The notes under the pieces were generated by a model, which was given only the letters and a program-made list of their open reading frames with translations, was not told the DNA's origin and searched no databases. A stretch of 64,000 nt of DNA. It comes from an uncultured delta proteobacterium (GTDB taxonomy: Bacteria; Myxococcota_A; Polyangia; Polyangiales; Polyangiaceae). The position numbers and the translations under genes were made by a program. Positions within the stretch are counted from its first letter, which is position 1; each line of letters opens with the position of its first letter. This document shows, piece after piece, positions 987 to 60,254 of this stretch. The stretch covers positions 608,001 through 672,000 of the forward strand of contig CAWAIF010000003.1 in the NCBI GenBank assembly GCA_963782055.1. Reading direction: 5' to 3'.

Positions 987-1762
987 CAGTGGTTCCCCGT
1001 GATCTGCTGCGGAATGTTGGGTCGGGTGATGATCTGCACCGGCCCGGCCTTGATCAGGTCTGCGGAGCTGTACTTGGGCACCTCGCCGGTGGAGTTGTCG
1101 TCCGGGCTGCGCAGGACGACGGAGACCGAGCCCCTCTCCATCGCCACCGACATCGCCTGCGCCTGCTCCAGGCGCATGCTGAGGGTGAGGATGCTCTCGG
1201 TGCCGCGGCGATCCTTGGTGAGGTCGATGGCGTCGGGGGAGGTGTTGTACCCCGACGCCAGCACCAGGACCTTCTGCAACAGCACGACGGCCGAGCGGCT
1301 GTCACCGCCGCCCTGGTCGGGCAGGACCGCGATGACGTCGACGAAGTCGCCGGGGCGGACCATCGCGGAGCTGGCGTCCTCACGGCTGGTGCGGATGGAG
1401 ACGGCGCGGCTGCCCGGCACGATGAGCGACGAGAGGTCCCGGCGCTCCTCGTTGGCGGTGGCGAGGTCCGTCCACATGAGGGTCTGGCCGGCCTGGACCG
1501 AGTTGCCCACCTTGAGGCCCAGGATCTTCGGCTTGTCGACCTCCTTGATGGCCCTGTCCTCCACGTACGCCTGCGGGACGTCGTGGGTCGTCAGCATGTC
1601 GTCGGTGATGGGCTTGTCGCGGTCGATCGGCTTGACCGCCGTGAGCAAGCGAACCTTGTCGCCGCCAGAGGCCTCTCGCTCGAAGCGCTTCGTGTAGAGT
1701 ACAAGTAACATGACGCCCAGCAGGGCAACCACGAAGGCGAGGAGCAGCGCGCGACGATCCAT
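986..1762 (-). CDS. cpaB: Flp pilus assembly protein CpaB (SAF + RcpC domains)
   Basis: N-terminal TM helix, SAF-like segment, 'IVPGSRAVSI...MVRPGDFVDVI...LLQKVLVLA'; directly upstream of the secretin. Confidence 0.9.
   Translation of the reverse strand: MDRRALLLAFVVALLGVMLLVLYTKRFEREASGGDKVRLLTAVKPIDRDKPITDDMLTTHDVPQAYVEDRAIKEVDKPKILGLKVGNSVQAGQTLMWTDLATANEERRDLSSLIVPGSRAVSIRTSREDASSAMVRPGDFVDVIAVLPDQGGGDSRSAVVLLQKVLVLASGYNTSPDAIDLTKDRRGTESILTLSMRLEQAQAMSVAMERGSVSVVLRSPDDNSTGEVPKYSSADLIKAGPVQIITRPNIPQQITGNH
1692..1704. repeat. Intragenic 13-bp palindrome, copy 1 (GTGTA-GAG-TACAA) inside cpaB
   Basis: Matches KTGYA-N3-TRCAM; local codons TTA CTT GTA are non-preferred in this GC-rich context. 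Confidence 0.6.
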
Positions 1763-1864
1763 GCTGACCGAACACGCTACCCGGCTTCGGCGCGTTTGGA
1801 AATGGGCCCATTTCCCGCTGGCTCGAGCGTTTGCTTCTGGCCCGCACGCGTCAGCGAGGAAGGC

Positions 1865-2536
1865 TCAGCGCAGCCGGGTCGGGCCGATCGCCACCGGGCC
1901 GTGGCGGCGCACGTAGATGACCTTCTTGTGCTGCACCTTGAAGGGCTGATCCACCATGTAGTACTCGTCGCGCGGCTGCACCACGACCGAGACCGTCGGG
2001 CTCTCCGGGCGCAGGTTCTTGGCGGACTTGTCCGAGGTATCGAGCAGAAACTCGAGCTGATCGCCGGGCTTGGCCTTCATCATGAAGGTCGCGGCGCCCG
2101 CCGAGTCGGTGCGGGCGATCTCGTTGCCCAGGTACTTGATGGGCAGGTCATAGCCGTGGTCGGAGCGCACGGCGACGACCACCTTGCGCTCGGTGGGGGG
2201 GCAGGCCGCCTCGTACTGGGTGATCTTGCCGTCGGCGAAGCGGTGGAGCTTCACGGTGATGGGGCGGACCGGGGACAGGTAGCCGTCCGGGCACTTCACC
2301 CACACCTCCAGCTGGTCGCCCTCCGAGCCGTGGAAGGTGAGGATCGCCTTGCCCGTCTCGTCCGTCTTGCCCAGCTCCTTCGAGCTGCGCTGGATGGAGG
2401 CGTTGGCGAGCGGGACGTTCTCGTCGGAGTCCACGCGGACGGCCACCTTGAAAGGTGGCGGCGGCGGGTCCTCCAGCTGCTTGCAGGCCATCGTTCCCCC
2501 GAGGAGGGGCAGGAGCACGAGCAAGAGTCTCCGCAT
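1865..2536 (-). CDS. Hypothetical lipoprotein with two beta-sandwich-like repeats
   Basis: Signal peptide ending ...GTMAC; two similar segments (ELGKTDETGKAIL / EIARTDSAGAATF); TAGACT box 6 nt before the ATG. Confidence 0.75.
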   Translation of the reverse strand: MRRLLLVLLPLLGGTMACKQLEDPPPPPFKVAVRVDSDENVPLANASIQRSSKELGKTDETGKAILTFHGSEGDQLEVWVKCPDGYLSPVRPITVKLHRFADGKITQYEAACPPTERKVVVAVRSDHGYDLPIKYLGNEIARTDSAGAATFMMKAKPGDQLEFLLDTSDKSAKNLRPESPTVSVVVQPRDEYYMVDQPFKVQHKKVIYVRRHGPVAIGPTRLR

Positions 2537-2603
2537 GGTGAGAGTCTACGCGTCCCGGCCATGCCGTCAAAGGGGCGACGAGGCGGTGGCGTTGGGGGGA
2601 GGG

Positions 2604-5017
2604 CTAGGCCCGCAGGGTCGCGCCGAAGGTCTTCGAGACCGCCTCCACGACCTGGGCGTGGCGGGCGTCCACCTCGGCGTCGGTGAGGGTGCGGTCTTCC
2701 GCCCGGTAGAGGACCCGCAGCGCGAGGCTGACGCTGCCGGCGGGGATACCCTGCCCGGTGAAGCGGTCGAAGAGGTGGACGTGGGCGGCGAGGTCGCCGG
2801 CGGCCTTCTCCGCCTCGGCCACGACATCCCCGGCGGGGACGTCCTCCCGCACCACCACGGCCAGATCCCGGCTGCTCGAGGGGTAGCGGGGGAGGGGAAC
2901 GTAGCGTGGGACGGGCGCAGCGTGGGCGGCCAGGGCGGCCAGGTCCAGCTCGATGACGAGCACGCGGTCGAGGTCCCAGGCGTCGGCGACGTCCGGGTGG
3001 AGGGGGCCGAGCACGCCGAAGCGGGTGCCCTGCACCTCGATGGCGCCAGCTCCCCGGGGGTGCAGGTGCCCGGGCCGGGCGTCCGGGGCGATCGTTGCCA
3101 TGCTCGCGGTGGCGTAGCCGAGGCGGCGGAGCAGGCCCTCCGCGACACCCTTGGCATCCCAGACGTCCAGGGCCTCCGGGCGGCGGAGGTACGCGGGGCG
3201 CTCCCCGACCAGCAGCGCCGCGAAGCGATGCGTCTCGGTGGGGAGCGTCTCGCCCCCGCGGGGGGGAGGAAGACCGTGCCGACGGTGAACAGCGCGACGC
3301 CGGGCTCGCCGCGGTTCTTGGCCAGGCGCGCGACGTCGAGCAGGCCCGGCAGCACGCTGGTGCGCATCACGCCCTGCTGCGACGACAGTGGGTTGCGCAG
3401 GACGACCGCCGGGGGCGGCGCGCCCACCGCGGCGAGCGCCTCGGGGGAGCTGAAGGCGTAGGGGATCGCCTCCGACAGACCGAGCTCCACCGCCGCGGCG
3501 CGCACGCGTCGCACCAGCTCCTCGCGGCCACCGACGGGCAGCGTCGGGCGGATGGCGGGCAGGACGGTGGGCACCGAGTCCATGCCGCGCACCCGCACCA
3601 CCTCCTCGGCGAGATCGGCCTCGCGCGCGACGTCCGGGCGATGGGTGGGGACGAGGAACGTGGCTGCCTCCTCCGACCCGCTCTTCTTCTGGAAGCCGAG
3701 GCGCTCCAGGAGGGCTGTCGCGTCCGCCATGGGCACGTGCACGCCGAGCAGCGCATCCATCCGCCGCGCGCGAAGGGTCACCGACGGCTGCGGCAGTCGC
3801 CTGGCCTCCGCGAGCAGCGGCTCCGGCGCCGCGGCGCCGCCGCCCAGCCGGCACGTCATGGCCGTCGCCTGGCGCAGGGCGTCGCGCGTGTCGCCGTGGT
3901 CGACGCCGCGCTCGAAGCGGTGGCTGGACTCGGAGTGCAGGCCGTGGCGGCGCGCAGTCCGCCGCACGGTGCGCGGGTCGAAGTACGCGCACTCGAGCAG
4001 GATGTGCTTCGTCGACGGCCCGATCTCGGTGGAGGCGCCGCCCATGACACCCGCGAGGGCGACCGGGCCGCTGGCGTCGGCGATGACCAGATCGTCGGCG
4101 GTGAGGGTGCGCGTCTCGCCGTCGAGGGTGACGAGCTTCTCCCCCTCCGTCGCCAGCCGGACGATGATGGTGCCGCCGGCGATCTTGTCGGCGTCGAAGG
4201 CGTGCATCGGGTGGCCGTACTCGAGCATCACCATGTTGGTGACGTCGACGACGTTGGAGATGGGGCGGACGCCCAGCGCCGCGAGGCGGTAGCGGACCTC
4301 CAGCGGGGAGGGGGCGATGGTGGCGCCCTCCACGATGCCCGCGGCGTAGTGGGGGCAGCGGTCCGGCGTGTCGATCCGGACCTTCACGCGCTGGCCCACG
4401 GGGGCGCCGCCCTCGCGCGCGGAGGACTCCGGCGCGGGCGTCTTCCACGGGATCTCGAGCAGGGCGGCGGCCTCCCGCGCGAGCCCCAGGTGGCCGAGGC
4501 CGTCGGGCCGGTTGGGGGTGAGGCCGATGTCGAAGACGGTGTCCTGCGCGGCGGGGACCGCGTCCACGAAGCGTGCGCCCGGCTCGGCGAAGGCGGGGGG
4601 CAGCACCAGGATGCCGCCTGATTCCTCGGTGAGCCCGAGCTCCGCCTCGCTGCAGAGCATGCCCTCGCTCGCGACGCCCGCGATGGTGCGCCGCTCGATG
4701 GTCATGCCCTTCGCCGGCAGGTGGGTGCCGAGGGGGGCGAGCACCACCACGCCGCCGGCCTCCGGGACGTTGGGCGCGCCGCACACCACTTCCTGGGTGG
4801 CCCCGCCGCGGTCCACCGTCACCAGACGCAGGCCGCTCTTTTGCGGGTGCGGGCGGACGGACACGACCCACGCGCACACGCACGTCTCGATGCCCGCGCC
4901 GTAGGTGTGGATGCCCTCCACCTCCAGGCCCGCCGCGGTGAAGCGCGCGGCGAGCTTCTTCGGGTCGTCAGGGAGCCCGGGGACCAGGCTCTTGAGCCAG
5001 CCGTAGGACGCTTTCAT
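2604..5017 (-). CDS. pheT: Phenylalanyl-tRNA synthetase beta subunit, with an apparent 1-nt frameshift near 3253-3266
   Basis: N-terminal PheT (MKASYGWLK..VVCGAPNV..SEGMLCS..LTPNRPD..RFERGVD..READLAEEVVR) is in frame 2567..5017. The C-terminal B5/FDX-ACB part (LHPRGAG..GPLHP..RYPSSSRDLAVVV..LFDRFTG..RTLTDAEV) is in frame 2604..4883. Confidence 0.95.
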
Positions 5018-5041
5018 CGATCGGACCGTTTCATTCGCATC

Positions 5042-6097
5042 TCAGAACTGCGCGAGGAAGCGGGGGTCGTTCTCGAAGAAGAGGCGGATGTCGGGGATGT
5101 CGTGGCGAAGCATCGCCACGCGCTCGATGCCCATGCCCAGCGCGAAGCCGGTGTACTTCTCCGGGTCGATGCCGCAGTGCTCGAAGACGACGGGGTGGAT
5201 CATCCCGCAGCCGAGGATCTCAATCCATCCTGTGTGCTTGCAGACGTTGCAGCCGCGGCGGGTGCCGTCGGGTTGCTTGCAGAATACACACCCGATGTCC
5301 ACCTCCGCCCCCGGCTCGACGAAGGGGAAGTAGCTCGGACGCAGGCGCACCGGCGTGCCGCGGCCGTAGAAGCGCTCGGCGAAGGCGGCGAGGACGCCCT
5401 TGAGGTGGGCGAGGCTCACCCCCTCGTCCACCATGAAGGCCTCCAGCTGGTGGAACATGGGGGAGTGGGTGATGTCGTCGTCGCACCGGTAGACGGTGCC
5501 CGGCGCGATGAAGGCCATCGGCGGCTTCACCGTGGACATGGCGCGGACCTGGATGTTGCTCGTGTGCGTGCGCAGCACCTGGCCGGAGGTGGTCCAGAAG
5601 CTGTCCTGCATGTCCGTCGCCGGGTGGTCCGGCGGGAAGCCGAGCTTGGTGAAGTTGTTCTCCTCGAGGTCGATCTCCGGGCCGTCGAAGACCGCGAAGC
5701 CCATGGTCCCGAAGATGTGGACGAGCTCCTCCCGCACCGCGGAGAGGGGGTGCTTGTGGCCGAGGGGTGCGCGCTCGCGACCCGGGAGGGTGAGGTCGAA
5801 GGCCGGCGCGTTGAGATCGGCGTCGCGCTTCTTGCGGGCGATGGCCTGCAGGCGGGTCTCGAAGCTCTTCTCCACCTCCGCCTTGAGGCCGTTGACGCGC
5901 TCGCCGATGGCCTTGCGCTGGTCGGCCGGGACGCGGCCCATCAGCTTGAGGATGCCGGTCAGCTCCCCCTTCTTGCCGAGGATCTTGGCGTTCTCGTCGC
6001 GCAGCGCCTGCTCCGTCTCCGCCGCCTCGAACCGCGGGCCGTACGCCTTCGCGAGGGCTTCGAGGGAGGCGAGGATGTCGGCGTGGGCGTCGGCCAT
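5042..6097 (-). CDS. pheS: Phenylalanyl-tRNA synthetase alpha subunit
   Basis: Motifs DHPATDMQDSF, LRTHTSNIQ, THSPMFHQLE, RPSYFPFVEP, WIEILGCGM, GFALGMGIER. Alternative start at 6112. Confidence 0.98.
   Translation of the reverse strand: MADAHADILASLEALAKAYGPRFEAAETEQALRDENAKILGKKGELTGILKLMGRVPADQRKAIGERVNGLKAEVEKSFETRLQAIARKKRDADLNAPAFDLTLPGRERAPLGHKHPLSAVREELVHIFGTMGFAVFDGPEIDLEENNFTKLGFPPDHPATDMQDSFWTTSGQVLRTHTSNIQVRAMSTVKPPMAFIAPGTVYRCDDDITHSPMFHQLEAFMVDEGVSLAHLKGVLAAFAERFYGRGTPVRLRPSYFPFVEPGAEVDIGCVFCKQPDGTRRGCNVCKHTGWIEILGCGMIHPVVFEHCGIDPEKYTGFALGMGIERVAMLRHDIPDIRLFFENDPRFLAQF
5277..5289. repeat. Intragenic 13-bp palindrome, copy 2 (TTGCA-GAA-TACAC) inside pheS
   Basis: Codons TGT GTA TTC TGC AAG CAA on the minus strand, with non-preferred A/T-ending codons. 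Confidence 0.6.
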
Positions 6098-6180
6098 GGG
6101 GGCACTCGACATAGCACGGACGGGCGAGCCGCCTCAGCCCGGACCTGCCGCGCCTCGGTCGCCGCGGAGGAGTGGTGGTG

Positions 6181-6531
6181 CTACTTCGCGCCGGCCGTCT
6201 TGACGACCTTGGCGAACGCGGGGGCGTCGACGATGGCGATGTCGCTCAGGACCTTGCGATCCAGGGCGATGTTCGCCTTCTTCAGCCCGTGCATCAGGCG
6301 GGAGTAGCTGGTGCCGTTCTGCCGGGCGGCCGCGTTGATGCGGGCGATCCAGAGGCGGCGAAAGTCGCGCTTGCGGCGCTTGCGGTGGGCGTAGGAGTAG
6401 ACCCACGCCTTCATCACCACCTCCTTCGCGTAGGCGAAGAGGCGGGAGCGGGCGCTGTGGTAGCCCGAGGCGTGTTCGAGGATACGGTTGCGACGGCGGC
6501 GGGCTTTGAAGCCCCTCTTGGCGCGCGGCAT
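6181..6531 (-). CDS. rplT: 50S ribosomal protein L20
   Basis: [43 protein letters not shown]. Confidence 0.98.
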
Positions 6532-6558
6532 GGCTTTCTGGCTCCCTGGACGAAGACG

Positions 6559-6756
6559 TCAGCTGTAGGGGATGAGACGCTTGACCTTCCGCTCGAGCGT
6601 CGAATCCAGCATGTCGTTCTGACGCAGGCGGCGAAGGCGCTTGCGCGACTTCTCCTGCATCATGTGGTTGCCGCCCGCCTTCGGACGACGAACGCGGCCG
6701 GTCCCGGAAACCCGGAAGCGCTTGGCCGCGCTCTTGTTGGTCTTCATCTTCGGCAT
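6559..6756 (-). CDS. rpmI: 50S ribosomal protein L35
   Basis: MPKMKTNKSAAKRFRVSGTG... (65 aa), the C-terminal end of track ORF 6559..8352; lies upstream of rplT. Confidence 0.97.
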   Translation of the reverse strand: MPKMKTNKSAAKRFRVSGTGRVRRPKAGGNHMMQEKSRKRLRRLRQNDMLDSTLERKVKRLIPYS

Positions 6757-6834
6757 GGTGAGCCTCGTTCTCGCTCCGGAAAGGCCGCGGAAACCGCGGT
6801 TTTGGGGGACGCCCTTCCAGACGCGGGGAGCGGG

Positions 6835-6862
6835 TTTATGGTCGATGGGCCCCGGATTGTCA
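6835..6862 (-). promoter_or_regulatory. Putative sigma70-type promoter for rpmI-rplT
   Basis: Minus strand TTGACA (6857-6862), 16-nt spacer, CATAAA (6835-6840). Confidence 0.55.
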
Positions 6863-6911
6863 AGCGCCGGGGGCTCCCGGCGGGCGGGCCGCTCCGGTGC
6901 CGGGCTGCCAT

Positions 6912-6941: not shown

Positions 6942-6948
6942 GGGAGAC

Positions 6949-7920: not shown

Positions 7921-7962
7921 CCCGGGGGGGCACCCGGACCTCGACGCCCGTAGGATGGCGCG

Positions 7963-21394: not shown

Positions 21395-22402
21395 GTGCGT
21401 CTCCGGACCGCCGCGGTCGCGGCCCTCGTGATCCTTGCAGAGTGCACGCCTTCTGGCGAGCGGGAGGCGTCGGGCACGCCTGCCCCACCGCCGGGCGCCT
21501 CCGCGCAGGTGGCCGTCCGGCCGGCGGCTTCCGGCTCTGCCACCGCGCTCCCGTCCGCGTCCGCGCCCGCGGCGCCGGCCGTCTCCGCAGGCCCCGACGC
21601 GTCGGCTCCCGAGGCCGCGCCGCCGGGCATGCTCCTTGTGCCCGCGGGCAGCTTCACCATGGGCGCCGACACCGGCGGCGAGCAGGACGAGCACCCCGCG
21701 CACCGGGTCACCCTCCCGGCGTTCTGGCTGGACCGCACCGAGGTGACCAACGCCGCCTACGACGCGTGCGTGCGCGCGAAGGCCTGCCGCGTCAACGACC
21801 GGCACGTGGCGAGCCGCCGCCACGCCGGACCGGACGCGCGCTTCCTGAGCCCGAACAAGCCGGTCGTCGGGGTGAGCTGGGACGACGCGACCGCGTACTG
21901 CGCATGGCGGGGCGCCCGCCTGCCGCGGGAGGCGGAGTTCGAGCGCGCCGAGCGCGGGGACGACGACCGCACCTACCCGTGGGGCAACGAGCCGCCCACC
22001 CCGGACCGCGCGGTCTACGGCCGCCCGCTCGGCGTCGGCAGCACCGACGACGTGGGCACGCACCCCGCGGGTCGCGGCCCGTACGGTCACGAGGATCTCG
22101 CCGGCAACGTCTGGGAGTGGCAGCAGGACGAGTACGATCCCGTCGCCTACCGTCGCAAGACGGCGAGCGAGGGCAAGCCGGGCACCTGCCCGGAGATCCT
22201 CGCCACGCTGGCGAAGCTCCGCGCCGAGGGCAAGCAGGGCTTCACTGGCTCCAACCCCCTCCCCACCACCTGCGAGCACGTGCTGCGGGGCGGCGCGTTC
22301 AACTACTTCCCGCGCGGGCTGCGGGCGAGCAACCGCGTGCACCACCCCGGTCGGTACCGCCTGGTGATGTCCGGCTTCCGCTGCGCCAAGGACGCGCGCT
22401 GA
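21395..22402 (+). CDS. Formylglycine-generating enzyme (FGE/SUMF1) domain protein, exported
   Basis: VPAGSFTMG, EHPAH, LDRTEVTN, PVVGVSW, RLPREAEFE, DLAGNVWEW, RGG, GFRCA. Confidence 0.9.
   Translation: MRLRTAAVAALVILAECTPSGEREASGTPAPPPGASAQVAVRPAASGSATALPSASAPAAPAVSAGPDASAPEAAPPGMLLVPAGSFTMGADTGGEQDEHPAHRVTLPAFWLDRTEVTNAAYDACVRAKACRVNDRHVASRRHAGPDARFLSPNKPVVGVSWDDATAYCAWRGARLPREAEFERAERGDDDRTYPWGNEPPTPDRAVYGRPLGVGSTDDVGTHPAGRGPYGHEDLAGNVWEWQQDEYDPVAYRRKTASEGKPGTCPEILATLAKLRAEGKQGFTGSNPLPTTCEHVLRGGAFNYFPRGLRASNRVHHPGRYRLVMSGFRCAKDAR
21435..21447. repeat. Intragenic 13-bp palindrome, copy 3 (TTGCA-GAG-TGCAC) inside the FGE-domain gene
   Basis: Codons CTT GCA GAG TGC ACG CCT TCT. Confidence 0.55.
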
Positions 22403-25616: not shown

Positions 25617-27163
25617 CCGCCCTCGGGGTCCGGCTCGCGCACCGCAGTCACCGTCGCCTCGACCTGTCCCTCGTGGACGCGCAGGGTGAGGGTGTCGCCC
25701 GGCGCGACGTCGCGCGCCGCCCGCACCGCGCGCCCGTCCGCCCGCGTCGCGATGGCGTACCCGCGGCCGAGCACCTTGAGCGGGCTCATCGCGTCCAGCC
25801 GCGCGCCCAGCTGCTCGAGCGAGGCGCTCTCCCGGGCGACGCGCGTCGCGACGAGGCTGCCCACCCGCGCGGCGACGCGCCCGAGCTCGGCCTTCTCGCG
25901 CGCCAGCACCGCGCCCGGGTGCACGACCGCGAGCCGCTGCGAGAGCGGAGCGAGCTGCGCGCGCCCGCGCCGCACCGCCCGGCGCGCCCCCGACTCCACG
26001 CGCCCCCGCCTGTCGTCCAGGGCCTGCTGGTGGGCGGCGATGGCGAGGCGCGGATCGCCGAGCAGCCGCGCGTGGCCGGCGAGCTCCGCCTTGCCGCGCG
26101 CCAGGTGAGCGCGCGCGGCGCGCTCCAGCCTCTCGCGCAGGTGCCGCGCCTCCCGCCGCATCGCCTGCCGATCGGGCACCGTCATCTCCGCCGCCTGCGA
26201 CGGGGTCGCCGCGCGGCGGTCCGCCGCGAAGTCTGTGAGGGTGACGTCCACCTCGTGGCCCACCGCGCTCACCACCGGCACGCGGCAGGCGGCGACGGCG
26301 CGCACGAGCGCCTCGTCGTTCCACACCAGGAGCTCGTCGAAGGATCCGCCGCCGCGCCCCACGATGATGACGTCCACCGTGGCCACTCGCTGCAGGATGC
26401 GCAGCGCCCGCGCGATGCTCTCCGCCGCGCCGGCCCCCTGCACGCGCGCCGGGGCGAGCAGGATGCGCGCGCCGCCGCGCTGCTTCGCCACCTTGCAGAT
26501 GTCGTGGATGACGGCGCCGCCGGCGCTGGTGACGACGCCCACGACGCGCGGCGACGACGGGAGCGCGCGCTTGCGCCCGGCGTCGAAGAGGCCCTCGGCG
26601 GCGAGCTTCGCCTTCAGCCGCTCGATCGCCTCGAGCAGGGCGCCGCGCCCGGCGAGCTCCACGCGGTCGGCGGTGAGCTGCAGCCGCCCGCGCGGGGCGT
26701 AGTACGTCGGCCGCCCGCGCAGGCGCACCCGGGCGCCGTCCTTGATCATCGCGCGGGTGCGGGAGGTCAGGTTGCTCTTGTAGACGACCACGTCGACCGC
26801 GGCGTCCTCCTCGGCGTCCTTGAGTGTAAAGTACAAGTGTCCGCTGCCCGCCGGGCGGGCCCCCACGACCTCGCCCTCGACCCACACCCCGCGCGCAAAG
26901 CCGGCGTCGATGGCCCCGCGGATGGCTCGCCCCAGCTCGGCGACGGACATGGCGCGCGGCTGGCCGCGGGGCTCCGGCGGGCGCGCCGCCGGCGCGGGAG
27001 GCCCCACGGGCGGCTCGTCGTCCAGCTCCACCCAGCGCGTGGGGCTCGGGGCGTCCGGGTACGGCGGCGGCCAGTCGGACTGCGGCGCCTCGCTCGCGGG
27101 TGCCTCCTCCTGCGCCGCGGGGAGGGCGTCGAAGTCGAATGTCAGCGAGCGCTGGTCGGTCAC
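25613..27163 (-). CDS. xseA: Exodeoxyribonuclease VII large subunit
   Basis: VWVEGEV, SGHLYFTLKD, GRGGGS, SAVGHEVD, RAATPSQAAE, LGRGYAI; Pro-rich N-terminal extension. Start GTG 27163 supported by TATGCT 6 nt upstream. Confidence 0.95.
   Translation of the reverse strand: MTDQRSLTFDFDALPAAQEEAPASEAPQSDWPPPYPDAPSPTRWVELDDEPPVGPPAPAARPPEPRGQPRAMSVAELGRAIRGAIDAGFARGVWVEGEVVGARPAGSGHLYFTLKDAEEDAAVDVVVYKSNLTSRTRAMIKDGARVRLRGRPTYYAPRGRLQLTADRVELAGRGALLEAIERLKAKLAAEGLFDAGRKRALPSSPRVVGVVTSAGGAVIHDICKVAKQRGGARILLAPARVQGAGAAESIARALRILQRVATVDVIIVGRGGGSFDELLVWNDEALVRAVAACRVPVVSAVGHEVDVTLTDFAADRRAATPSQAAEMTVPDRQAMRREARHLRERLERAARAHLARGKAELAGHARLLGDPRLAIAAHQQALDDRRGRVESGARRAVRRGRAQLAPLSQRLAVVHPGAVLAREKAELGRVAARVGSLVATRVARESASLEQLGARLDAMSPLKVLGRGYAIATRADGRAVRAARDVAPGDTLTLRVHEGQVEATVTAVREPDPEGG
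26824..26836. repeat. Intragenic 13-bp palindrome, copy 4 (GTGTA-AAG-TACAA) inside xseA
   Basis: Codons CAC TTG TAC TTT ACA CTC in an otherwise extreme-GC3 gene. Confidence 0.6.
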
Positions 27164-29407: not shown

Positions 29408-31855
29408 ATGATCACGCGCGCGCTCCGCCCCTACGGGCTCTTTGCAGTCTGCATCCTCTTTTCTTGCTCCAGCACCGAGACACCGCCGGCGCCGACCTCG
29501 CCGACGGTCCACTTCGTCGACGCAGCCGCGGTGCCCGACTTCATGGACGTTCCCTTCCCGTCCGACGCGTACCTCGCGAACGGGAAGATCGGCACCATCC
29601 CCGCGCTGGACGCCGTGGTGACGGTCAACGCCAGCTTCTTGCAGAAGGCCCTCTCCACGCTGGACGGCTTCTCCCGCACGGCGGCCGCCGAGTTCTACGT
29701 CGACGACCCCACGTCCACCGCCGACGAGCCCGTCTCGGCGAAGGTCGACCCGGCGACCCTCCCGGTGAACGAAGCCGCCTGCCTGGCCGATCAGAGCTCG
29801 GTCTTCTTCCTGGATCTCGAGCAGACCGACCCGGCGAAGGCGCGCATCGGCTGCCGCGCCGCTTATCACGTCGCCAGCCTGGCCAAGACGCGGCCGGCGC
29901 TCGGCGTGGGGCCCGCGCGCGGGGTCGTCCTGCTGGAGGGGCACCGCTACGCGGCCGTCGTCACCAGCCGGGTGAAGGACAAGGACGGTCACGCCCTCGC
30001 GGCGAGCCCGGACTTCCAGAAGATCGCCTCGGGGGACCGCTCTGGCCCGGTCGGCGCCATGTACGGCGACGCCTACGACAAGGTGTCGGCGCTGCTCTCC
30101 GGCGCGCTCGCCGCCGACGGCGCGCAGATCGTCGGGGTGGCGGCCTACACCACCGACCACTCCACCCGGGAGCTCTTCGCCCTGCGCGACGCCCTGGAGG
30201 ACGCCCCCACGCCCGCGCTCAAGTGGGACACGGCCTCGCTCGCGCCCATGGGCGACGGACGGTTCGCCGCCGCGACGCCGTTGCCGGCGGGCTTCGCCGC
30301 CACCCTGGACGACTGGCTCGGCGTCGTCGACGCGAAGGACAAGCTCCCGAGCGGCGACGACGATCCCGATCGCAGCTTGCCCGTGCGCGCTCACGACAAG
30401 ATCGCGGCCGTGGGCACCGCGGTGTTCGACGCGGTGAACTACCTGCAGGTGCGGCCGAACGGCTACGCCGACCCGGACCACGCCAACTTCGCCCGCGACG
30501 CGTCGGGCAACGTCATCCCCGCGCCGGAGAAGCCGACGAGCAAGATCTGGGTCACGATCGCGCTGCCCACCGCGGCGATGCCGCCGGACGGCTACCCGGT
30601 CGTCATCGTGCAGCACGGCCTCTCCAGCTCCCGCTCCTTCCTCTTCGACCTCGCCAACATCTTCTGCGCGAAGGGCTGGGCGGCCGTCGCCATCGACAGC
30701 GTCACCTTCGGCGCGCGCGCGCCGGAGCCGCAGTACCAGAACGACAAGACCACCAACTACGTCAGCGCGCCCGGCGCCAAGTACAACGGCCCGGACGGCA
30801 TCGCCGACGTGGACGACAAGGGCGCCACCAACGGCTCCTTCGACCTCTTCGGTGGCCTGCAGAACCTCGGCGCCCTGCGCGATCAGCTCCGGCAGGCGGA
30901 GCTCGACACCGCGCAGCTCGTGAAGGTGCTGCGCGCCGGCCCGGACATCTCCCCGCTGCAGACGGGCGGCACCGCGCCGAAGCTGGACGGCTCGCGCATC
31001 GTCTACGTGGGCGATTCGCTCGGCGCGATCGAGGGGACCGTGGCCGCCGCGCTGGAGCCGCACGTGCTCGCGTGGGCGCTCAACGTCGACGGCGGCGGCA
31101 TCATCAACGAGCTGGGCGTGCACTCCCCGGCCATCAGCGCGCAGCTCTCCCTCGCCGGCGCGCTCAACTTCGGCTTCCAGAACGACCAGTTCACCGACAC
31201 GCACCCGCTGGTCACCCTGATCCAGACCATCGTCGGGCCCGGGGACCCCATCGACTACGCCTCGCGCCTGGTGACCGACCCGGCCCCGCTGAAGGGCGTG
31301 GCCACCAAGCCGCGCGACATCCTTCAGACGGAGGTCGTCTTCGACGAGATCGTCTCCAACGAGGCCGGCGAGGCGCTCGCCCGCGCCGCCGGGCTGCCGA
31401 TGGCGTCGCCCAACGTCGGCTCCAACGCCGAGATCATGGACCTCAAGGCCCCCGACCAGAACCCGCACCGGATCGACTTCCCGCAGGCGGCGCCGGACTC
31501 GGGGGGCGCCATCCACGACACGCCGCTGGCGGGCACGACAGCCGTCCTGGTGCAGCTCTCCCCCGGCACCCACGGCGAGGACATCGCCAACAGCCACGGC
31601 ACCCGGCAGTACCGGGCGCCCTGGGGGCAGTTCGACACCGATCAGCAGCCCTTCTTCCGCTTCGACACGGCCCAGCAGTACCAGGTGCGCTGCTCCTACC
31701 GGGAGACGCAGGCGGGCGTCACCGGCTTCTTCGACGGCGCCTTCGCCGGCAAGGTCCCGCAGATCGCCGGCTTCGCCGCGCCGGTGCGCGACCTGGACGA
31801 CGACGGCACCCCGGACGCGACCGACCCCGATCCGAACGACCCCAGCGTCAAGTAG
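29408..31855 (+). CDS. Exported alpha/beta-hydrolase (lipase-like) lipoprotein
   Basis: Signal peptide ending LFSC; 'PVVIVQHGL'; nucleophile elbow GDSLG; C-terminal DLDDDGTPDATDPDP Ca-binding-like motif. Confidence 0.8.
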   Translation: MITRALRPYGLFAVCILFSCSSTETPPAPTSPTVHFVDAAAVPDFMDVPFPSDAYLANGKIGTIPALDAVVTVNASFLQKALSTLDGFSRTAAAEFYVDDPTSTADEPVSAKVDPATLPVNEAACLADQSSVFFLDLEQTDPAKARIGCRAAYHVASLAKTRPALGVGPARGVVLLEGHRYAAVVTSRVKDKDGHALAASPDFQKIASGDRSGPVGAMYGDAYDKVSALLSGALAADGAQIVGVAAYTTDHSTRELFALRDALEDAPTPALKWDTASLAPMGDGRFAAATPLPAGFAATLDDWLGVVDAKDKLPSGDDDPDRSLPVRAHDKIAAVGTAVFDAVNYLQVRPNGYADPDHANFARDASGNVIPAPEKPTSKIWVTIALPTAAMPPDGYPVVIVQHGLSSSRSFLFDLANIFCAKGWAAVAIDSVTFGARAPEPQYQNDKTTNYVSAPGAKYNGPDGIADVDDKGATNGSFDLFGGLQNLGALRDQLRQAELDTAQLVKVLRAGPDISPLQTGGTAPKLDGSRIVYVGDSLGAIEGTVAAALEPHVLAWALNVDGGGIINELGVHSPAISAQLSLAGALNFGFQNDQFTDTHPLVTLIQTIVGPGDPIDYASRLVTDPAPLKGVATKPRDILQTEVVFDEIVSNEAGEALARAAGLPMASPNVGSNAEIMDLKAPDQNPHRIDFPQAAPDSGGAIHDTPLAGTTAVLVQLSPGTHGEDIANSHGTRQYRAPWGQFDTDQQPFFRFDTAQQYQVRCSYRETQAGVTGFFDGAFAGKVPQIAGFAAPVRDLDDDGTPDATDPDPNDPSVK
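29442..29454. repeat. Intragenic palindrome, copy 5 (TTGCA-GTC-TGCAT, one flank mismatch) inside the hydrolase gene
   Basis: Core TGCA-N3-TGCA intact; codons TTT GCA GTC TGC. It lies near the gene start, where AT content is naturally higher. Confidence 0.4.
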
Positions 31856-39830: not shown

Positions 39831-41141
39831 TCACGCCTCGACGCGGCCGAGCACCAGGGTGCGCGCCGGCGGGGCCTCCGGGGCGATCGTGTACGCACCG
39901 CGGACCCGCTCCTCCACCGCGGCGTCGCGCCCCCGGAGGTGCAGGATGGCGAGCTCCTGCCCGCGTGTCACGGCGTCGCCCGGCTTGGCCAGCACGGTGA
40001 TCCCCACCGCCTTGTCGACGTCCTGGTCGGCGCGTGTCCGCCCCGCGCCCATCGCCACCGCGGCGCGACCGATGGCCAGCGCGTCGGCGCGCGCCACGAA
40101 GCCGTCCTTCTCCGCGGTGACCGGCACCCTCACCGGCGCCACCTCCAGCAGGCCGGGGTCGGCCACCACGCGCGGGTCCCCGTGCTGCGCCTCGATCATC
40201 CGCTCGAGCACGCGCGCGGCGGCGCCCGAATTGATTGTATCATACAACAAAGGCACCGCCGTCAGGGTGTCCGGCGCCTTGCCGCCGAGCACCAGCATCT
40301 CCGCCGCCAGCGCCATCGTCACCTCGGTGACGTCGCCGGGGCCGCGGCCGTGGAGGATCTCGATGGCCTCGCGCGTCTCGAGGGCGTTGCCCACGGCCTT
40401 GCCCAGGGGCGCCTCCATGGCGGTGAGCAGCGCGACCACCTTCTTGCCGGCGCGGGTGCCCACGCGCACGAGCGCCTCGGCGAGGGCGCGCGCGTGCTCG
40501 ACGTCCTTCATGAAGGCGCCGGAGCCCACCTTCACGTCGAGCACCAGGCCGTCGATGCCCTCCGCCAGCTTCTTGGAGAGGATGGAGGCGACGATGAGGG
40601 GGACGCACTCGACCGTCGCCGTGACGTCTCGCAGGGCGTAGATGCGCTTGTCGGCCGGGGCGATGTCGCGCGTCTGGCCGATCATGCAGGTGCCCACGTC
40701 GCCGACGATGCGGGTGAAGTCGGCGACCGAGAGATCGGTGCGGAAGCCGGGGATCGCCTCCAGCTTGTCCAGCGTGCCGCCGGTGTGGCCCAGGCCGCGC
40801 CCGCTGACCATCGGCACCGGGACGCCGCACGCGGCGACCAGCGGCGCCAGGGCGATGGACACCTTGTCCCCGACGCCGCCGGTGGAGTGCTTGTCCACCT
40901 TGATGCCCGGCACGCCGGAGAGGTCGATGACCGTCCCGCTGCGGAGCATGGCGTCGGTGAGGGCCACGGTCTCGGCGTCGGTCATGCCGCGGAAGAAGAC
41001 CGCCATGAGGAAGGCGGCCATCTGGTAGTCGGTGACCTTGCCGTCCAAGAAGTCCCGGACGAGGCGGCGGATCTCCTCCTCGGCCAGCGCCTCGCCGTCG
41101 CGCTTCGCCCCGAGGATCTCCACCGTCGAACGCAAAATCAT
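39831..41141 (-). CDS. pdp: Thymidine/pyrimidine-nucleoside phosphorylase
   Basis: DKHSTGGVGDK, SGRGLGHTGGTLDKLEAIPG, ALRDVTATV, SKKLA, DVKVGSGAFM. Confidence 0.96.
   Translation of the reverse strand: MILRSTVEILGAKRDGEALAEEEIRRLVRDFLDGKVTDYQMAAFLMAVFFRGMTDAETVALTDAMLRSGTVIDLSGVPGIKVDKHSTGGVGDKVSIALAPLVAACGVPVPMVSGRGLGHTGGTLDKLEAIPGFRTDLSVADFTRIVGDVGTCMIGQTRDIAPADKRIYALRDVTATVECVPLIVASILSKKLAEGIDGLVLDVKVGSGAFMKDVEHARALAEALVRVGTRAGKKVVALLTAMEAPLGKAVGNALETREAIEILHGRGPGDVTEVTMALAAEMLVLGGKAPDTLTAVPLLYDTINSGAAARVLERMIEAQHGDPRVVADPGLLEVAPVRVPVTAEKDGFVARADALAIGRAAVAMGAGRTRADQDVDKAVGITVLAKPGDAVTRGQELAILHLRGRDAAVEERVRGAYTIAPEAPPARTLVLGRVEA
40235..40247. repeat. Intragenic 13-bp palindrome, copy 6 (TTGTA-TCA-TACAA) inside pdp
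   Basis: Perfect TTGTAT-C-ATACAA inside a 23-nt AT island (40229-40251); codons CCT TTG TTG TAT GAT ACA ATC AAT. Confidence 0.7.
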
Positions 41142-54324: not shown

Positions 54325-54484
54325 GCCCTCCAGTCGAAAGGTGTGTGCGGGTGCTACCCCTTGATAACCGCCCAGGTTCGGGGCCAGTCTAGATGCAAAC
54401 CAGCCCACCACCGTCCAACGCTGGGGTGCGCGTACGTCGGGCCGGGAAACCGGCGGCTTGCACTTCATCAAAGGAGCTTTCCTC

Positions 54485-55753: not shown

Positions 55754-55835
55754 GACGCTCGCGTCCCGGACGAAGGCGTGCCGCTTCACCGCGGCGCGCC
55801 TTCTCCATTTTGTGCCCGCCCAATCACCTGGGCGG

Positions 55836-55900
55836 GGAGGGGCGGCGCGTGCCGCGCCTCCCGGACGAGTCCTTCCGTGAGCGAAGCTCACATCCTCTCA
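55836..55900 (-). repeat. Modular intergenic repeat, copy 3
   Basis: 24-bp exact match to 48234-48257 and 17-bp exact match to 54308-54324. Confidence 0.8.
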
Positions 55901-57988
55901 ATTCGGAGGCGCCTCCGAGCAGACGTGGTTGATGCACGTCACGCCCTGCGCGGCGTTGCAGCAGTCCGCCGTCGAGTCGCAGTGGTCGCCGTTCTGCGAG
56001 CAGTTGCCCGTCTTGGGGGAGCACACCGGCGCGCCCCCGTCGGCTCCCTGATCGCAGTAGCCGCCGCAGCACTCGGTGCCCGACTGGCACCCCTGCCCGT
56101 CCTGCTTGCACGGGTCGAGCGCCCAGAAGCCGCGCATGTTGATCGAGTCGATCGCCTGGCCGGGGAGGCGGAAGGGCGGGTGGCTCGGGTCCTTGCCCGG
56201 CGTCGGCGACTGGTCGATCGCGGCCACCCAGAGCTGCTTGACCTGGTCCTTGGTGCCGAGGAGCGCGTTGCCGTAGGTGCGGCGGCTGGTGAACACGACC
56301 CAGAAGAAGCCGCCCGACGCGACGGGCGCGAAGGTCGGCTCGAAGTTCCACGACAGATCGCGCGAGCCCGCCGCGAAGGGGTAGCCGTCGCCGTCGAGCG
56401 CCGCCAGGCGCACCTCGCTGTTCGCGGTCTGCGTGCTGGCGACGTACAGGTCGCTGGTGCCGTAGCGCGTGTCGGCCGAGGGGCCGCGGCCGTAGATGAC
56501 CCACTTGCCGTCGGGCGCGACGGTGGGCCACAGGATGCGGTTGTTCGGGTCGCTGCCGGTCGCGACGAGCAACCGGTCGTTGGAGGCCATCGGGCTGGCC
56601 TTGGCGTCGAAGTCCACCGCGCGCAGGTCACCCGGCTGGGGGATGTTCCATCCCTGGGGCCAGGACGCCGGGTCGCCGGAGTTGACGTACGCGATGAGGG
56701 ACCCCTCCGGCGACCACGACGGCATGGCGGACAGCTTGCCGTCCAGGCCGCTGCTGGCCACCTTCGCGCCGCTCTGCGTGTCGTACAGGCTCTCGAAGCC
56801 TCCCGGCCCGCCCGAGGCCAGGCTCAGCCCGACGGCCATGGTGTTGGTCAGCATGTACTTTCCGTCGGGCGAGACGGCGGAGTTGCTCCACTGCACCGAC
56901 TGCCACTGCGTGGCCGCGTTGCCCGCGCCCCACGTGCCGCCGGTGTAGTGGACCGGCTGGCCGGCCTTCAGGTCGTACGAGCCGCCGTAGGTGCCGCCGC
57001 CGGAGACGATCGTCGAGCCGTCCGCCGACACCGTGTGGCACGTCATCAGGCAGCTCGACTGCACGTACTGGTTGCCGTCGTTGAGCGGCGCCTTGTAGGC
57101 GAAGTCGTCCGGGGCGGAGGCGCCGGGCTTGATGCGCATGACGCGGCCCAGGTTGTTGGCCCAGTAGTAGATGGTCCCGCGCATCGACTGGGGGGCGATG
57201 GTCCACTTCTGCTGCGTGACCACCGTCGCGTTGGAGCCGTCGTAGCGGGAGACGAAGAGGTCCGCCTTGCCGCTCGTCGAGTCGGTGAACTTGCGCCACA
57301 GGGTGTCGTCGAAGGCGAACTGCGAGGGCGGCGGCGCCTTGGCGAAGGACTCCAGCTCGAAGTACGGGCTGGTGAGGTGGACGTAGTACTGGTCGTTCGC
57401 CCCGCCGCCGTTCCACATGAGCGGGGTGGCGAGCAGGCCGCGCGGGAAGACCGTCTTGTCGTAGGGGTACGCCCACACGCACGACTTGTCCGGCGAGGTC
57501 GCGCCCTTCAGCGCCGACTGCGCGCCCGCAGGCACGTTGCCCGGGTTCACCTGGTACTGCAGCTTGATGGTCAGCTGCGCCGTGCCCTTCTGGCCCTGGT
57601 AGGCGGCGGTGATGGTGACGGGGCCGCCCACGTCGGTGGAGGGCGTGAAGATGCCGGTGGCGTCGATGGTGCCTGCGGCGGGGTAGTTGGCGGTCCAGGT
57701 GGGCGCGGGGATGGGCTGCTTGGTGCCGTCGGCGTAGTTGGCGAACGCGGCGAAGGCCTGGGTGATCACCTGATCGTTGACGATGGTGATCGTCGCGGTG
57801 GGCGGGTCCACCGTGATGCTCTTCAGGTCGTGGTTGCCGTTGTTGAACGGGTCGCTCTCGTTGCCGCCGTCCAGGCCGTTGCCGTTGTTGTTGCCGTTGT
57901 CGTCACCGCTGCTGCCGCACGCGGCGAGGCCGCCGGCCACGGCCACCGCCACCACGACAAGCACCGTCGCGCCCAGACGTCGGATCAT
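55898..57988 (-). CDS. Lipoprotein with Ig-like domain, TolB/PD40-like beta-propeller and Cys-rich C-terminus
   Basis: Lipobox LAAC; 'VSPDGKY', 'PSWSPEG', 'PTVAPDGKW', 'EPTFAP'; C-terminal C..CC..C modules. Alternative start at 57994. Confidence 0.8.
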   Translation of the reverse strand: MIRRLGATVLVVVAVAVAGGLAACGSSGDDNGNNNGNGLDGGNESDPFNNGNHDLKSITVDPPTATITIVNDQVITQAFAAFANYADGTKQPIPAPTWTANYPAAGTIDATGIFTPSTDVGGPVTITAAYQGQKGTAQLTIKLQYQVNPGNVPAGAQSALKGATSPDKSCVWAYPYDKTVFPRGLLATPLMWNGGGANDQYYVHLTSPYFELESFAKAPPPSQFAFDDTLWRKFTDSTSGKADLFVSRYDGSNATVVTQQKWTIAPQSMRGTIYYWANNLGRVMRIKPGASAPDDFAYKAPLNDGNQYVQSSCLMTCHTVSADGSTIVSGGGTYGGSYDLKAGQPVHYTGGTWGAGNAATQWQSVQWSNSAVSPDGKYMLTNTMAVGLSLASGGPGGFESLYDTQSGAKVASSGLDGKLSAMPSWSPEGSLIAYVNSGDPASWPQGWNIPQPGDLRAVDFDAKASPMASNDRLLVATGSDPNNRILWPTVAPDGKWVIYGRGPSADTRYGTSDLYVASTQTANSEVRLAALDGDGYPFAAGSRDLSWNFEPTFAPVASGGFFWVVFTSRRTYGNALLGTKDQVKQLWVAAIDQSPTPGKDPSHPPFRLPGQAIDSINMRGFWALDPCKQDGQGCQSGTECCGGYCDQGADGGAPVCSPKTGNCSQNGDHCDSTADCCNAAQGVTCINHVCSEAPPN

Positions 57989-58258
57989 CCACATGTCGGC
58001 TCTCCCTGCACGCACCACGCCACAGTGTGGCTACAATATTTCAGCGAAAGGCGAAGGACCGCAAGGGTCGGAAGGGACGCACCTGGGGATCCAGGGATCC
58101 ACCTGTCACGTGCGCAGACTCGCAAGTAGAAGGCATTTTGGCCGGATCGCGTGAGGCGCCGTCGCAAAGAGACATGGTGGGGACGCGCCGGCCGACCTGG
58201 GGGCGCCGGGCCCCGCGCCGGCTTGACGGATCCGACCGCGCGGCCTACGAGCCACCCC

Positions 58259-59374
58259 ATGACGACGCTCGAAGAACGCGTGACCGAGGCGCTGGGCAAG
58301 GTCAAGCACCCCACCCTCGATCAGAGCCTGACGGCTCTGGGCCTCGTGACCGGCGTGGCCAGCAGCGAGGGCAACGTGACGGTGACCCTCCGGCTGGAGG
58401 GTGGCGAGGGCGCGCTGCGCGAGACGCTCGGCGGCGCCGTCCGCGCGGCGGCCGGCGCGGTCGAGGGCGCGAAGGGGGTGGAGGTGAAGTGGGAAGAGGA
58501 GGTGCCCGCCCGCGCCCTCGCCCCGGACGACCCGCTGCCGGAGGTGCGCAACGTCATCCTGGTCATGAGCGGCAAGGGAGGCGTGGGCAAGAGCACCACC
58601 GCCGCCAACCTGACCCTGGCGCTCCATCGCGCGGGCTACCGCGTCGGGTTGCTGGACGCCGACATCTACGGCCCGTCCATCCCCACCATGCTGGGCGTGA
58701 CCGGGCGGCCGGTGTCGCTGGACGGCAAGACGATCGAGCCGCTGACGCGCTTCGGCGTGAAGCTGATGAGCATCGGCTTCCTGCTGGAGGACCCCAAGGC
58801 CGCCGTCGTGTGGCGCGGGCCGATGCTCCACGGCGCGCTCCAGCAGTTCCTGAAGGACGTCAACTGGGGGCCGCTGGACTACCTGATCCTCGACCTGCCG
58901 CCCGGCACCGGCGACGTCGCGCTCACCCTCTCGCAGCGGGTGAAGTCGACCGGCGCCGTCATCGTCACCACGCCGCAGCCCGTGGCCACCGACGACGTCT
59001 TCAAGTCGGTGAGCATGTGCGAGAAGGTGTCGATCCCCATTCTCGGCGTCGTGGAGAACATGAGCTACTTCGTCGACACCGCGGGCGTGCGCCACGAGCT
59101 CTTCGGCAAGGGCGGCGGGCAGGCGGTGGCCGATTTCGCCAAGGCGCCGCTCCTCGGCCAGATCCCCATCGATCAGAGCGTCCGGGAGTGGGGCGACAAG
59201 GGGACGCCGGTGGTGCAGGCCGCGCCCGGCAGCGCCATCGCGAAGAGCTTCGTGGAGCTGGCGGAGCGGCTCGCCGACGTCGTCGCCACGCGCAACGCGG
59301 GCGAGGAGGCCGGCCCGGTGATCGACCGCAGCGGCGGCAAGGGCGGCAAGCGGCGCCTCCCCGTCGCTCGCTGA
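58259..59374 (+). CDS. mrp: Mrp/ApbC (NBP35-family) ATPase with N-terminal DUF59-like region
   Basis: SGKGGVGKST, DADIYGPS, WRGPM, DLPPGTGD, VTTPQ, ENMS. Confidence 0.93.
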   Translation: MTTLEERVTEALGKVKHPTLDQSLTALGLVTGVASSEGNVTVTLRLEGGEGALRETLGGAVRAAAGAVEGAKGVEVKWEEEVPARALAPDDPLPEVRNVILVMSGKGGVGKSTTAANLTLALHRAGYRVGLLDADIYGPSIPTMLGVTGRPVSLDGKTIEPLTRFGVKLMSIGFLLEDPKAAVVWRGPMLHGALQQFLKDVNWGPLDYLILDLPPGTGDVALTLSQRVKSTGAVIVTTPQPVATDDVFKSVSMCEKVSIPILGVVENMSYFVDTAGVRHELFGKGGGQAVADFAKAPLLGQIPIDQSVREWGDKGTPVVQAAPGSAIAKSFVELAERLADVVATRNAGEEAGPVIDRSGGKGGKRRLPVAR

Positions 59375-59378
59375 CGTC

Positions 59379-60254
59379 TCAGCTCTTCCAGCCGCCGCTC
59401 TTCTTCGCGTGCTGGAACAGGTCCACGTCCTGCTCCTTCTTCAGCAGCACCCCGAGGAAGGGCAGCTCGCGGATGAAGCGCTCGTTGCCGATGCCGGCGC
59501 TCTGCAGCACGGCGATCCAGTCGACCAGCTCGCTCGTCGAGGGGCGCTTGCGCAGGCGCGGCAGGGCCCGCAGCTCGTAGAACTTCACCACCGCCTGGTC
59601 CACGAGGGACTGGTCGATGTGGGGGTGGTGGACGCGCACGATGCGCTTCATCAGCTCGACGTCGGGGAAGTCGATGAAGTGGAAGACGCACCGGCGCAGG
59701 AAGGCGTCGGGCAGCTCCTTCTCGTTGTTGGAGGTGATGACCACCACCGGCCGGTCCTTCGCGACAATCTCGTCGCCCGTCTCGGTGATGGAGAAGCGCA
59801 TGCGGTCCAGCTCGTGGAGCAGGTCGTTGGGGAACTCGATGTCGGCCTTGTCCACCTCGTCGATGAGCAGGACGTGGCGGCCCCGCGAACCGTGGAAGTA
59901 GGCGGTCTCCCCCTCCGAGGAGGCGGCGAAGGCACGACCGAGGGGCCCGAGCTTGATGTAGTGCCGGACGTCCTTCACGTCGCCGTCACCGAAGCGTGCA
60001 TCATACAAGCGTTGCACGGTGTCGTAGACGTAGAGGCCATCCTGCGCGCGTGTCGTCGACTTCACCGGCCAGTGGATGAGCGGCAGCTCCAGCGACTGGG
60101 CGATCGCCTCGGCCAGCAGGGTCTTGCCCGTGCCCGGCTCGCCCTTGACGAGGAGCGGACGCTCCAGCGCGAGGGCGCAGTTGACCGCGGCCTCCAGGGA
60201 CTCGTTGGTGAGGTAGCTCGGCGTGCCAGCGAAGCGGCGAAACTCTTGGGTCAC
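59379..60254 (-). CDS. MoxR-family AAA+ ATPase
   Basis: GEPGTGKT, LLIDEVDKAD, FPNDLL, TSNNEKELPDAFLRRC. Confidence 0.93.
   Translation of the reverse strand: MTQEFRRFAGTPSYLTNESLEAAVNCALALERPLLVKGEPGTGKTLLAEAIAQSLELPLIHWPVKSTTRAQDGLYVYDTVQRLYDARFGDGDVKDVRHYIKLGPLGRAFAASSEGETAYFHGSRGRHVLLIDEVDKADIEFPNDLLHELDRMRFSITETGDEIVAKDRPVVVITSNNEKELPDAFLRRCVFHFIDFPDVELMKRIVRVHHPHIDQSLVDQAVVKFYELRALPRLRKRPSTSELVDWIAVLQSAGIGNERFIRELPFLGVLLKKEQDVDLFQHAKKSGGWKS
59996..60008. repeat. Intragenic 13-bp palindrome, copy 7 (GTGCA-TCA-TACAA) inside the MoxR gene
   Basis: Codons CAA CGC TTG TAT GAT GCA, all but one non-preferred. Confidence 0.65.

Follow-up and report, generated by a model that had tools for sequence, protein, structure and literature searches.

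A stretch of 64,000 nt of contig CAWAIF010000003.1 (assembly GCA_963782055.1), here called the window and used as the origin for site coordinates, contains seven copies of a short palindrome, TGYA-N3-TRCA (the 11-bp core; the 13-bp form adds G/T and A/C on the outside), which was found to be selected, spread throughout the genome and linked to a clade of cysteine-free MarR proteins. The reading favoured here, to which we assign a probability of about 0.5, is that the site is read by a former arsenic-sensing MarR protein that now acts in the manner of a sequence-specific nucleoid protein and not by gene-by-gene regulation.

The source genome (G000; 7.58 Mb, 72% GC, three contigs, C2 and C3 among them) contains 450 cores, 409 of which score above 0 with a flank matrix trained on the cores of this genome. 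On C3 the 13-bp form occurs 264 times with the 3-bp spacer and 9–63 times with each of twelve other spacers, while 212 of the 281 13-bp sites in the genome lie in coding sequences (CDSs), as compared to 10.3 ± 3.0 (largest 17) in 20 within-gene synonymous codon permutations. This roughly 20-fold excess was obtained with our own crude gene caller and is independent of the trained matrix. Called CDSs hold 313 of the 409 scoring cores, a number that rises to 363 with extended starts (77–89% coding). Rare codons make up 43–76% of those under the core against 5% in the genome background, and, because they are built with such codons, the sites must have been gained rather than tolerated. The original prediction for this DNA, made from the window alone, had pointed to non-preferred codons at the sites and had named other spacers and codon-shuffled genes as comparisons, and it is borne out on all three.

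All eight core positions are strict, in that no single substitution is enriched and cores with one mismatch and good flanks reach only 48, where 26 would be expected. The site extends beyond 13 bp: the matrix prefers A/T at the centre and T, A and G at 9, 10 and 11 bp from it, and the A/T excess ends at ±12 bp, giving a footprint of 25 bp. The base directly outside the core is G in 48%, T in 34%, A in 14% and C in 4% of cases genome-wide. The TTG that had been reported on at least one arm is indeed present at all seven window sites (8 matches against 0.16 expected), but the preference for T in the flank proved to be a peculiarity of the window. At each of the seven positions examined, the two arms vary independently (213 of 409 sites paired at one of them, where 212 would be expected), as two half-sites would and a hairpin would not. 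A hairpin formed in RNA or DNA, or a leftover of a mobile repeat, as might be suspected from the presence of the site in 18 of 56 copies of a hairpin repeat and in two insertion sequence (IS) families, is an exceedingly improbable explanation: repeat families account for just 60 of the 450 cores, and this share, together with the absence of co-variation between the arms, refutes it for the bulk of the sites.

Within the window, all seven cores were recovered at the places previously given for them, whereas 100 dinucleotide shuffles yielded a mean of 0.75 and a maximum of 4 (0/100 reached seven), close to the earlier rough estimate of one core by chance. The sites had been described as intragenic, which holds: six are in called CDSs and the seventh (21436) is within the FGE open reading frame (ORF) 21395-22402, where it falls in the part that encodes an N-terminus resembling a signal peptide, ahead of the Pfam domain. 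The host gene names are supported by Pfam for cpaB, pheS, the FGE gene, xseA, pdp and the AAA ATPase gene, but no Pfam match was obtained for the ORF named as a hydrolase. The sites are as follows, in window coordinates:

1686..1710 (core 1693-1703), unstranded: 25-bp site in cpaB, at codon 20; flank score 9.4.
5271..5295 (core 5278-5288), unstranded: 25-bp site in pheS, at a Cys-x-x-Cys stretch; core match and conservation.
21429..21453 (core 21436-21446), unstranded: 25-bp site at the 5' end of the FGE-domain ORF 21395-22402; start codon uncertain.
26818..26842 (core 26825-26835), unstranded: 25-bp site in xseA; core match and conservation.
29436..29460 (core 29443-29453), unstranded: 25-bp site near the 5' end of the 815-residue ORF 29408-31855; core match.
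40229..40253 (core 40236-40246), unstranded: 25-bp site in pdp; core match and conservation.
59990..60014 (core 59997-60007), unstranded: 25-bp site in the AAA ATPase gene, earlier named moxR; core match.

The expectation that the motif would also be enriched in relatives, and single sites conserved in them, was confirmed. Sixteen of 61 genomes are motif-rich, defined as carrying the 13-bp form more than three times as often as its reversed control (48–779 copies), and the other 45 are near the control. Fifteen of the 16 belong to one branch of a single family, probably the Polyangiaceae, and a quick PheT tree groups the 14 of them that it includes (3 changes; 0/500 shuffles as low), with the motif-poor genome G019 nested among them. 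The densest genome, G033, has 47 sites in 91 kb, which extrapolates to roughly 1,800. A genome of another family, G060, has 48 copies against 12 in the control, and no MarR orthologue was found in it. For its occurrence outside the order, loci around MarR relatives are the only source.

As regards individual sites, the pheS site is present at the same codons in 8/10 other motif-rich and 0/2 motif-poor genomes (12 of 30 loci reached the site codon), the xseA site is kept in 10/20 motif-rich or likely-rich genomes (10/14 of those with permissive residues) and 0/8 motif-poor ones, and the pdp site is kept in 6/6 congeners, 0/11 other motif-rich and 0/9 motif-poor genomes; this pattern indicates that sites both persist and turn over. 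The cpaB site is not kept in the one orthologue seen. The residues at the pdp site are Leu-Tyr-Asp-Thr in G000 and Leu-Gln-Asn/Ser-Ala in its congeners, and the survival of the site through this amino-acid change implies purifying selection. Furthermore, the loci compared for xseA and pdp hold 38 sites in 163 kb from motif-rich genomes and none in 74 kb from motif-poor ones. An earlier conservation test on incidental loci covered 18 orthologous positions only and is uninformative alone.

A listing of winged-helix proteins led to a marR gene with the site just upstream in 5/5 genomes. It maps outside the window, in keeping with the earlier remark that the cognate protein need not be encoded there:

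C3:3529426-3529845 of G000 (locus L038:5424-5846), minus strand: candidate marR gene, with the site 20 bp before the ATG.

The candidate MarR protein has 140 residues, an isoelectric point of 10.1 and no cysteine; its MarR domain (PF01047) is found over the cut-off with an E value of 1.9e-13, and the top Foldseek matches of its predicted model (pLDDT 82) are all MarR proteins. Its neighbours are fatty-acid hydroxylase, DUF433, KGG and TerB-like genes, so that the locus is not an ars operon, and no ArsM orthologue was found in the called G000 proteome. The gene is single-copy in 74/251 genomes of the family, mostly all-or-none by genus, and a close orthologue (at least 62% identity) is present in 14/16 motif-rich but only 1/45 motif-poor genomes (G019), while G032 has a 47% version without the upstream site, hereafter the self-site. 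The self-site is placed 18–25 bp ahead of the start codon and follows a conserved -35-like element in 15/15 orthologue loci of G-numbered genomes and in 29 of 38 distinct orthologue loci with upstream DNA (7 duplicates dropped). All four further genomes with a self-site have 30–92 sites per Mb in samples of 100–200 kb, among them Labilithrix luteola DSM 27648 (L097, G349) with 6 sites in 200 kb, and three genomes without a self-site have 0 sites in 240 kb. In G033 the candidate is one of five PF12802 matches, the closest to a type with a Cys-Cys pair described below, and the only one with an upstream site. Among 46 close orthologue loci, 42 encode no cysteine and 4 encode one.

Other possible readers were also considered. 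All 8 neighbourhoods of XRE (HTH_3) proteins of G033 were examined and none was singled out, while none of the other MarR_2 matches, at 18 loci from G033, G023 and G029, has a site at a fixed upstream place. No relative of the candidate was found in viral contigs.

Because the motif-rich genomes are kin, stronger support comes from distant MarR relatives in motif-poor genomes. For example, in G046 (22 copies in 9.8 Mb), two sites with scores of 13.4 and 13.1, which would rank among the top 10 of the 450 in G000, are flanked by an arsC-like gene and by a DUF47 gene, the latter followed by the gene of a Cys-Cys MarR with 40% identity, while in G044 (14 copies) a site lies 15 bp before an arsM-marR operon. 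The arsM-marR(Cys-Cys) operon is widespread in Myxococcota (26/301 genomes; loci L116-L141), often with two tandem operator-like palindromes before arsM. The exact site stands at the operon start in 10 of the 26 Cys-Cys loci, whereas six control spacers gave 0–2 matches in the 87 kb; with one mismatch the figure is 12/26, against 2 matches in the remaining 82.5 kb. An arsM match is present at 25/26 of these loci, which are not independent, 14/26 being from a single family. On a Pseudomonas plasmid, a one-mismatch site precedes the start of a marR gene (Cys36/Cys37) that is followed by arsN1, an FAD oxidoreductase gene, arsD and arsA. A quick tree of 148 columns, in which AdMarR-ars was not included, unites the cysteine-free orthologues with the Cys-Cys proteins in a single clade (SH-aLRT 94); the best G000 match of a Cys-Cys query is the candidate itself, and the alignment reveals that in its orthologues the Cys-Cys pair is replaced and the C-terminal cysteines are absent.

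The MarR-ars subfamily, according to the part of the source available, comprises autorepressors released by As(III)/Sb(III) and defined by three cysteines, the triad Cys36/37/157; AdMarR-ars of Achromobacter As-55 regulated only marR and arsV, and that part of the text gives no operator sequence (bioRxiv 10.1101/2021.08.12.456183). The candidate resembles these proteins in its MarR winged helix and in the autoregulatory position of its site, and the Cys-Cys MarRs of arsM, arsC and arsN operons group with it in the tree and carry the same palindrome in their promoters. MarR-ars proteins differ from it in having three cysteines (Cys-Cys before the winged helix, one C-terminal) and an ars-operon location, and it differs from AdMarR-ars in its hundreds of conserved intragenic sites. 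With no cysteines and no ars operon the candidate falls outside the subfamily, yet it shares the site and, as far as sequence comparison can tell, probably the ancestry. The palindrome supplies a candidate operator for the MarR-ars type. The presence of the same site before ars operons in other bacteria makes a former arsenic sensor its probable binding protein, and direct binding by the MarR protein is considered likely on these comparisons.

A number of observations weigh against this assignment. Co-occurrence with marR is weak evidence among kin, as it would be seen for any gene specific to the branch. The self-site is missing from nine orthologue loci (L106, L108-L115), which keep the same recognition helix and wing and of which eight form one well-supported subclade; loci of this kind hold 1 site in 139 kb, compared to 22 in 315 kb for loci with a self-site; genome G350 likewise has 0 sites in 200 kb. 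In G019 the motif has not spread (27 copies against 36 in the control), although protein and self-site are both present, while in the motif-rich genomes G006 (84% complete) and G060 no orthologue was found. As for the Cys-Cys loci, 14/26 are without the site even at one mismatch, the recognition helix differs in several of the proteins whose loci carry the site, a second such Pseudomonas plasmid locus has no site at the cut-off used (1/2), and two MarRs chosen as outgroup fall inside the clade. From the site-less subclade and G019 it follows that the MarR protein is not sufficient; lower expression or a lost partner could explain orthologues without spread. A search of 200 kb from the site-less subclade for another palindrome, a weak test, revealed nothing clear. 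These orthologues, with the same DNA-reading residues and no sites, also speak for the view that another dimer reads the dispersed sites and marR is only one target, or that the MarR protein reads them but depends for its function on a partner that G019 and the site-less subclade have lost. We regard this as distinctly unlikely, as a second protein confined to the branch would leave unexplained why the site accompanies distant Cys-Cys MarR operons, both in motif-poor genomes from other families and in Pseudomonas, and as the HTH_3, HTH_20, MarR_2 and ParB_N lists yield no better candidate.

The placement of the sites bears on what a MarR reader would do. The replication terminus (ter) was inferred from KOPS polarity and GC skew to lie near C3 3.55 Mb, with dnaA on C2. 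Binned by distance from ter, the sites are unevenly distributed (chi-square p 0.005) but without a gradient (Spearman -0.01), and the ter-nearest 250-kb bin has 37 sites, the second highest of 14 bins. Sites are spread evenly along genes, with no clear start-codon-proximal peak in G000, where the density per 100 kb is 4.8 in CDSs, 13.9 in gaps between tandem genes, 8.8 in divergent and 12.3 in convergent gaps. Gaps of less than 400 bp between sites number 0 against 8.5 expected in G000 but 7/35 in G033, and spacing is not used as evidence. Two site-free gaps, of 233 kb (C3:1526917-1760249) and 176 kb (C3:2227421-2403041), were observed, the first with ordinary GC and gene length. The sole parB (C3:3345406-3345681) is near the inferred ter, with two parS-like sites and dnaA far off (C2:77899, 79201, 449243).

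The same MarR reader might instead have a transcriptional function, silencing cryptic promoters or acting as a global repressor or a roadblock. On both strands, the middle of the site resembles the sigma-70 -10 hexamer, and the self-site covers a putative -10 region behind the conserved -35-like element. The per-base density that is 2–3 times higher between genes than in them likewise favours this view and counts against a structural one, and SlyA/RovA passed from local repressor to pleiotropic regulator via expression level, which could explain orthologues without spread (PMC6401476). We nevertheless hold a transcriptional function to be fairly unlikely, as 77–89% of sites are in ORFs and run evenly along genes, divergent gaps are not favoured over convergent ones, and the sites, being built with rare codons, were gained in host genes that are unrelated. 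The promoter reading of the dispersed sites was also rejected on their surroundings, with no -35-like word at fixed offsets and enriched pentamers that traced to repeat families. The even spread, the lack of promoter geometry and the unrelated host genes favour a nucleoid-protein role over regulation. The earlier statement that the motif is not a promoter operator holds for the dispersed sites, but the same site sits over the promoters of the marR gene and of ars operons.

Molecular drive would accumulate a motif through DNA-uptake bias, as for DUS/USS, or through a methylase- or repair-driven bias such as has been proposed for HIP1. The strict core and uniform intragenic spread would fit, as would the lower density in low-GC windows (0.8 against 1.0–1.5 per 20 kb) and in genes of low third-position GC. 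However, a repressor footprint is suggested by the soft flanks reaching ±12 bp and by the operator position of the site at promoters of the MarR-ars type, and retention of the pdp site through amino-acid change points to purifying selection, so that drive is very unlikely.

Under the favoured reading, the ancestor would have been an arsenic/antimony-sensing repressor of the MarR-ars type. Recognition-helix and wing contacts are the general picture of MarR-DNA complexes, and here the recognition helix of each subunit would read one strict 4-bp half-core while the wings would reach the A/T pairs 9–10 bp from the centre, giving one 25-bp footprint. As the cysteine triad is lost, no release by As(III) is expected, and binding would be constitutive or under another signal. 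Autorepression through the self-site over its own promoter would set the MarR level, and selection would have written the site into about 400 (G000) to roughly 1,800 (G033) places, mostly genic and all round the chromosome, which would serve as evenly spread anchor or constraint points. Given binding, a structural chromosome function is somewhat more probable than another. The earlier proposal of a dimer-bound, selected intragenic site agrees with the selection, the independent arms and the lack of promoter bias, while the structural role that it proposed is an inference. Taken as a whole, the emergence in one myxobacterial branch of a new chromosome-organising system by exaptation of an arsenic-sensing MarR repressor that lost its metalloid switch is put forward tentatively, at somewhat less than even odds. 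If true, a genome has recoded hundreds to thousands of core-gene positions for an operator, even changing amino acids, and the birth of a sequence-specific nucleoid protein would be traceable, with loss or non-expansion in G019 and the site-less subclade.

Several other repeats were observed. The intergenic hairpin repeat is about 140 bp long, with 56 matches, most of them full length, and has conserved arms and a variable loop, in which the site lies in the 18 copies that carry it; examples are C3 1154292-1154431 and 1155311-1155446 (locus L274). No Rfam match was obtained at loci L038 and L274. An ORF at L274:1400-2163 (minus strand), between an inverted pair of these repeats and cut where the hairpin repeat begins, resembles by eye the N-terminus of a retron-type reverse transcriptase. 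The two IS families, with DDE_Tnp_1_4 and ISL3 transposases and five copies each, carry the site at about 320 and 170 bp, respectively, ahead of the called transposase ORF (first family, C3: 892888, 4424992, 5176049, 6144906, 2124325; second family, C3: 891011, 2227422, 6178123, 6194379, 6770335). Another palindrome, perfect over 14 bp, AT-rich at its centre and unrelated to the first, has 12 copies, mostly in pairs 22 bp apart (C3: 887108, 887130, 910104, 910126, 918593, 918615, 950769, 2544255, 2732749, 2732771, 4287804, 4287826).

Known chromosome-organising motifs offer a first comparison. The matS, SBS and NBS sites are strict dispersed palindromes, often genic, with 20–70 sites confined to or excluded from ter, and SlmA and Noc are regulator-family or ParB-family proteins turned to chromosome work. 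A positional system of the MatP/matS, SlmA/SBS or Noc/NBS type, to which the original prediction likened the motif, would share the dispersed intragenic palindrome and the 5-3-5 geometry but is highly improbable: hundreds to about 1,800 sites are present here, neither concentrated at nor excluded from ter, and the candidate belongs to a different protein family. MatP was absent in 4/4 genomes searched; no Noc-type ParB paralogue was found, with a single ParB_N match in G000 and one ParB-domain protein each in G000, G029, G031 and G033, SlmA not being searched separately. The motif had itself been recognized as unlike these three, and G000 has 1 copy of matS and none of SBS or NBS.

Other parallels come from regulators. 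In SlyA/RovA, as in the candidate, a local MarR repressor lost its linked targets and became a conserved genome-scale factor; unlike here, ligand inhibition was kept and countersilencing occurs at AT-rich foreign promoters, and lower SlyA expression is argued for E. coli (PMC6401476). The site of the candidate, unlike that of SlyA, is a strict one carried in the coding sequence of core genes. PA3458 of P. aeruginosa is also a MarR protein, with >300 chromatin immunoprecipitation sites, but its motif is degenerate and was seen on overexpression, and the passages available report no selection on intragenic sites (PMC8070244). CdbA of Myxococcus xanthus, a myxobacterial nucleoid protein with >500 sites and little transcriptional effect, is a functional model for the favoured explanation, while differing from the candidate in its ribbon-helix-helix fold, GC-rich direct repeat and moderate specificity (PMC7156744). 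CdbA was rejected as the reader itself, its motif being a direct repeat (PMC7156744). In offering a dispersed site under selection, the present system behaves like CdbA or like a matS extended over the whole genome. A word search, with motif letters not searched and most subscription journals and RegPrecise outside it, found no published account of the candidate protein, of a MarR-ars operator or of a MarR protein with a selected genome-wide intragenic site.

PhoB and sigma-54 of E. coli resemble the present case in having most sites within genes (PMC9934606, PMC4591121). However, the intragenic PhoB sites are unconserved noise (PMC9934606), as opposed to the 20-fold enriched and conserved sites described here, and those of sigma-54 are oriented promoters (PMC4591121), while the present sites are symmetric. 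The two accounts leave in dispute whether transcription-factor sites inside genes are noise or have a function (PMC9934606 against PMC4591121); here selection is plain, with a 20-fold enrichment at a cost in rare codons and retention between genera and despite amino-acid change. The case also offers a named candidate reader, an ancestor that can be identified, kin with the protein but without the sites, and a cultured strain with both, so that the route from local repressor to nucleoid protein becomes directly testable.

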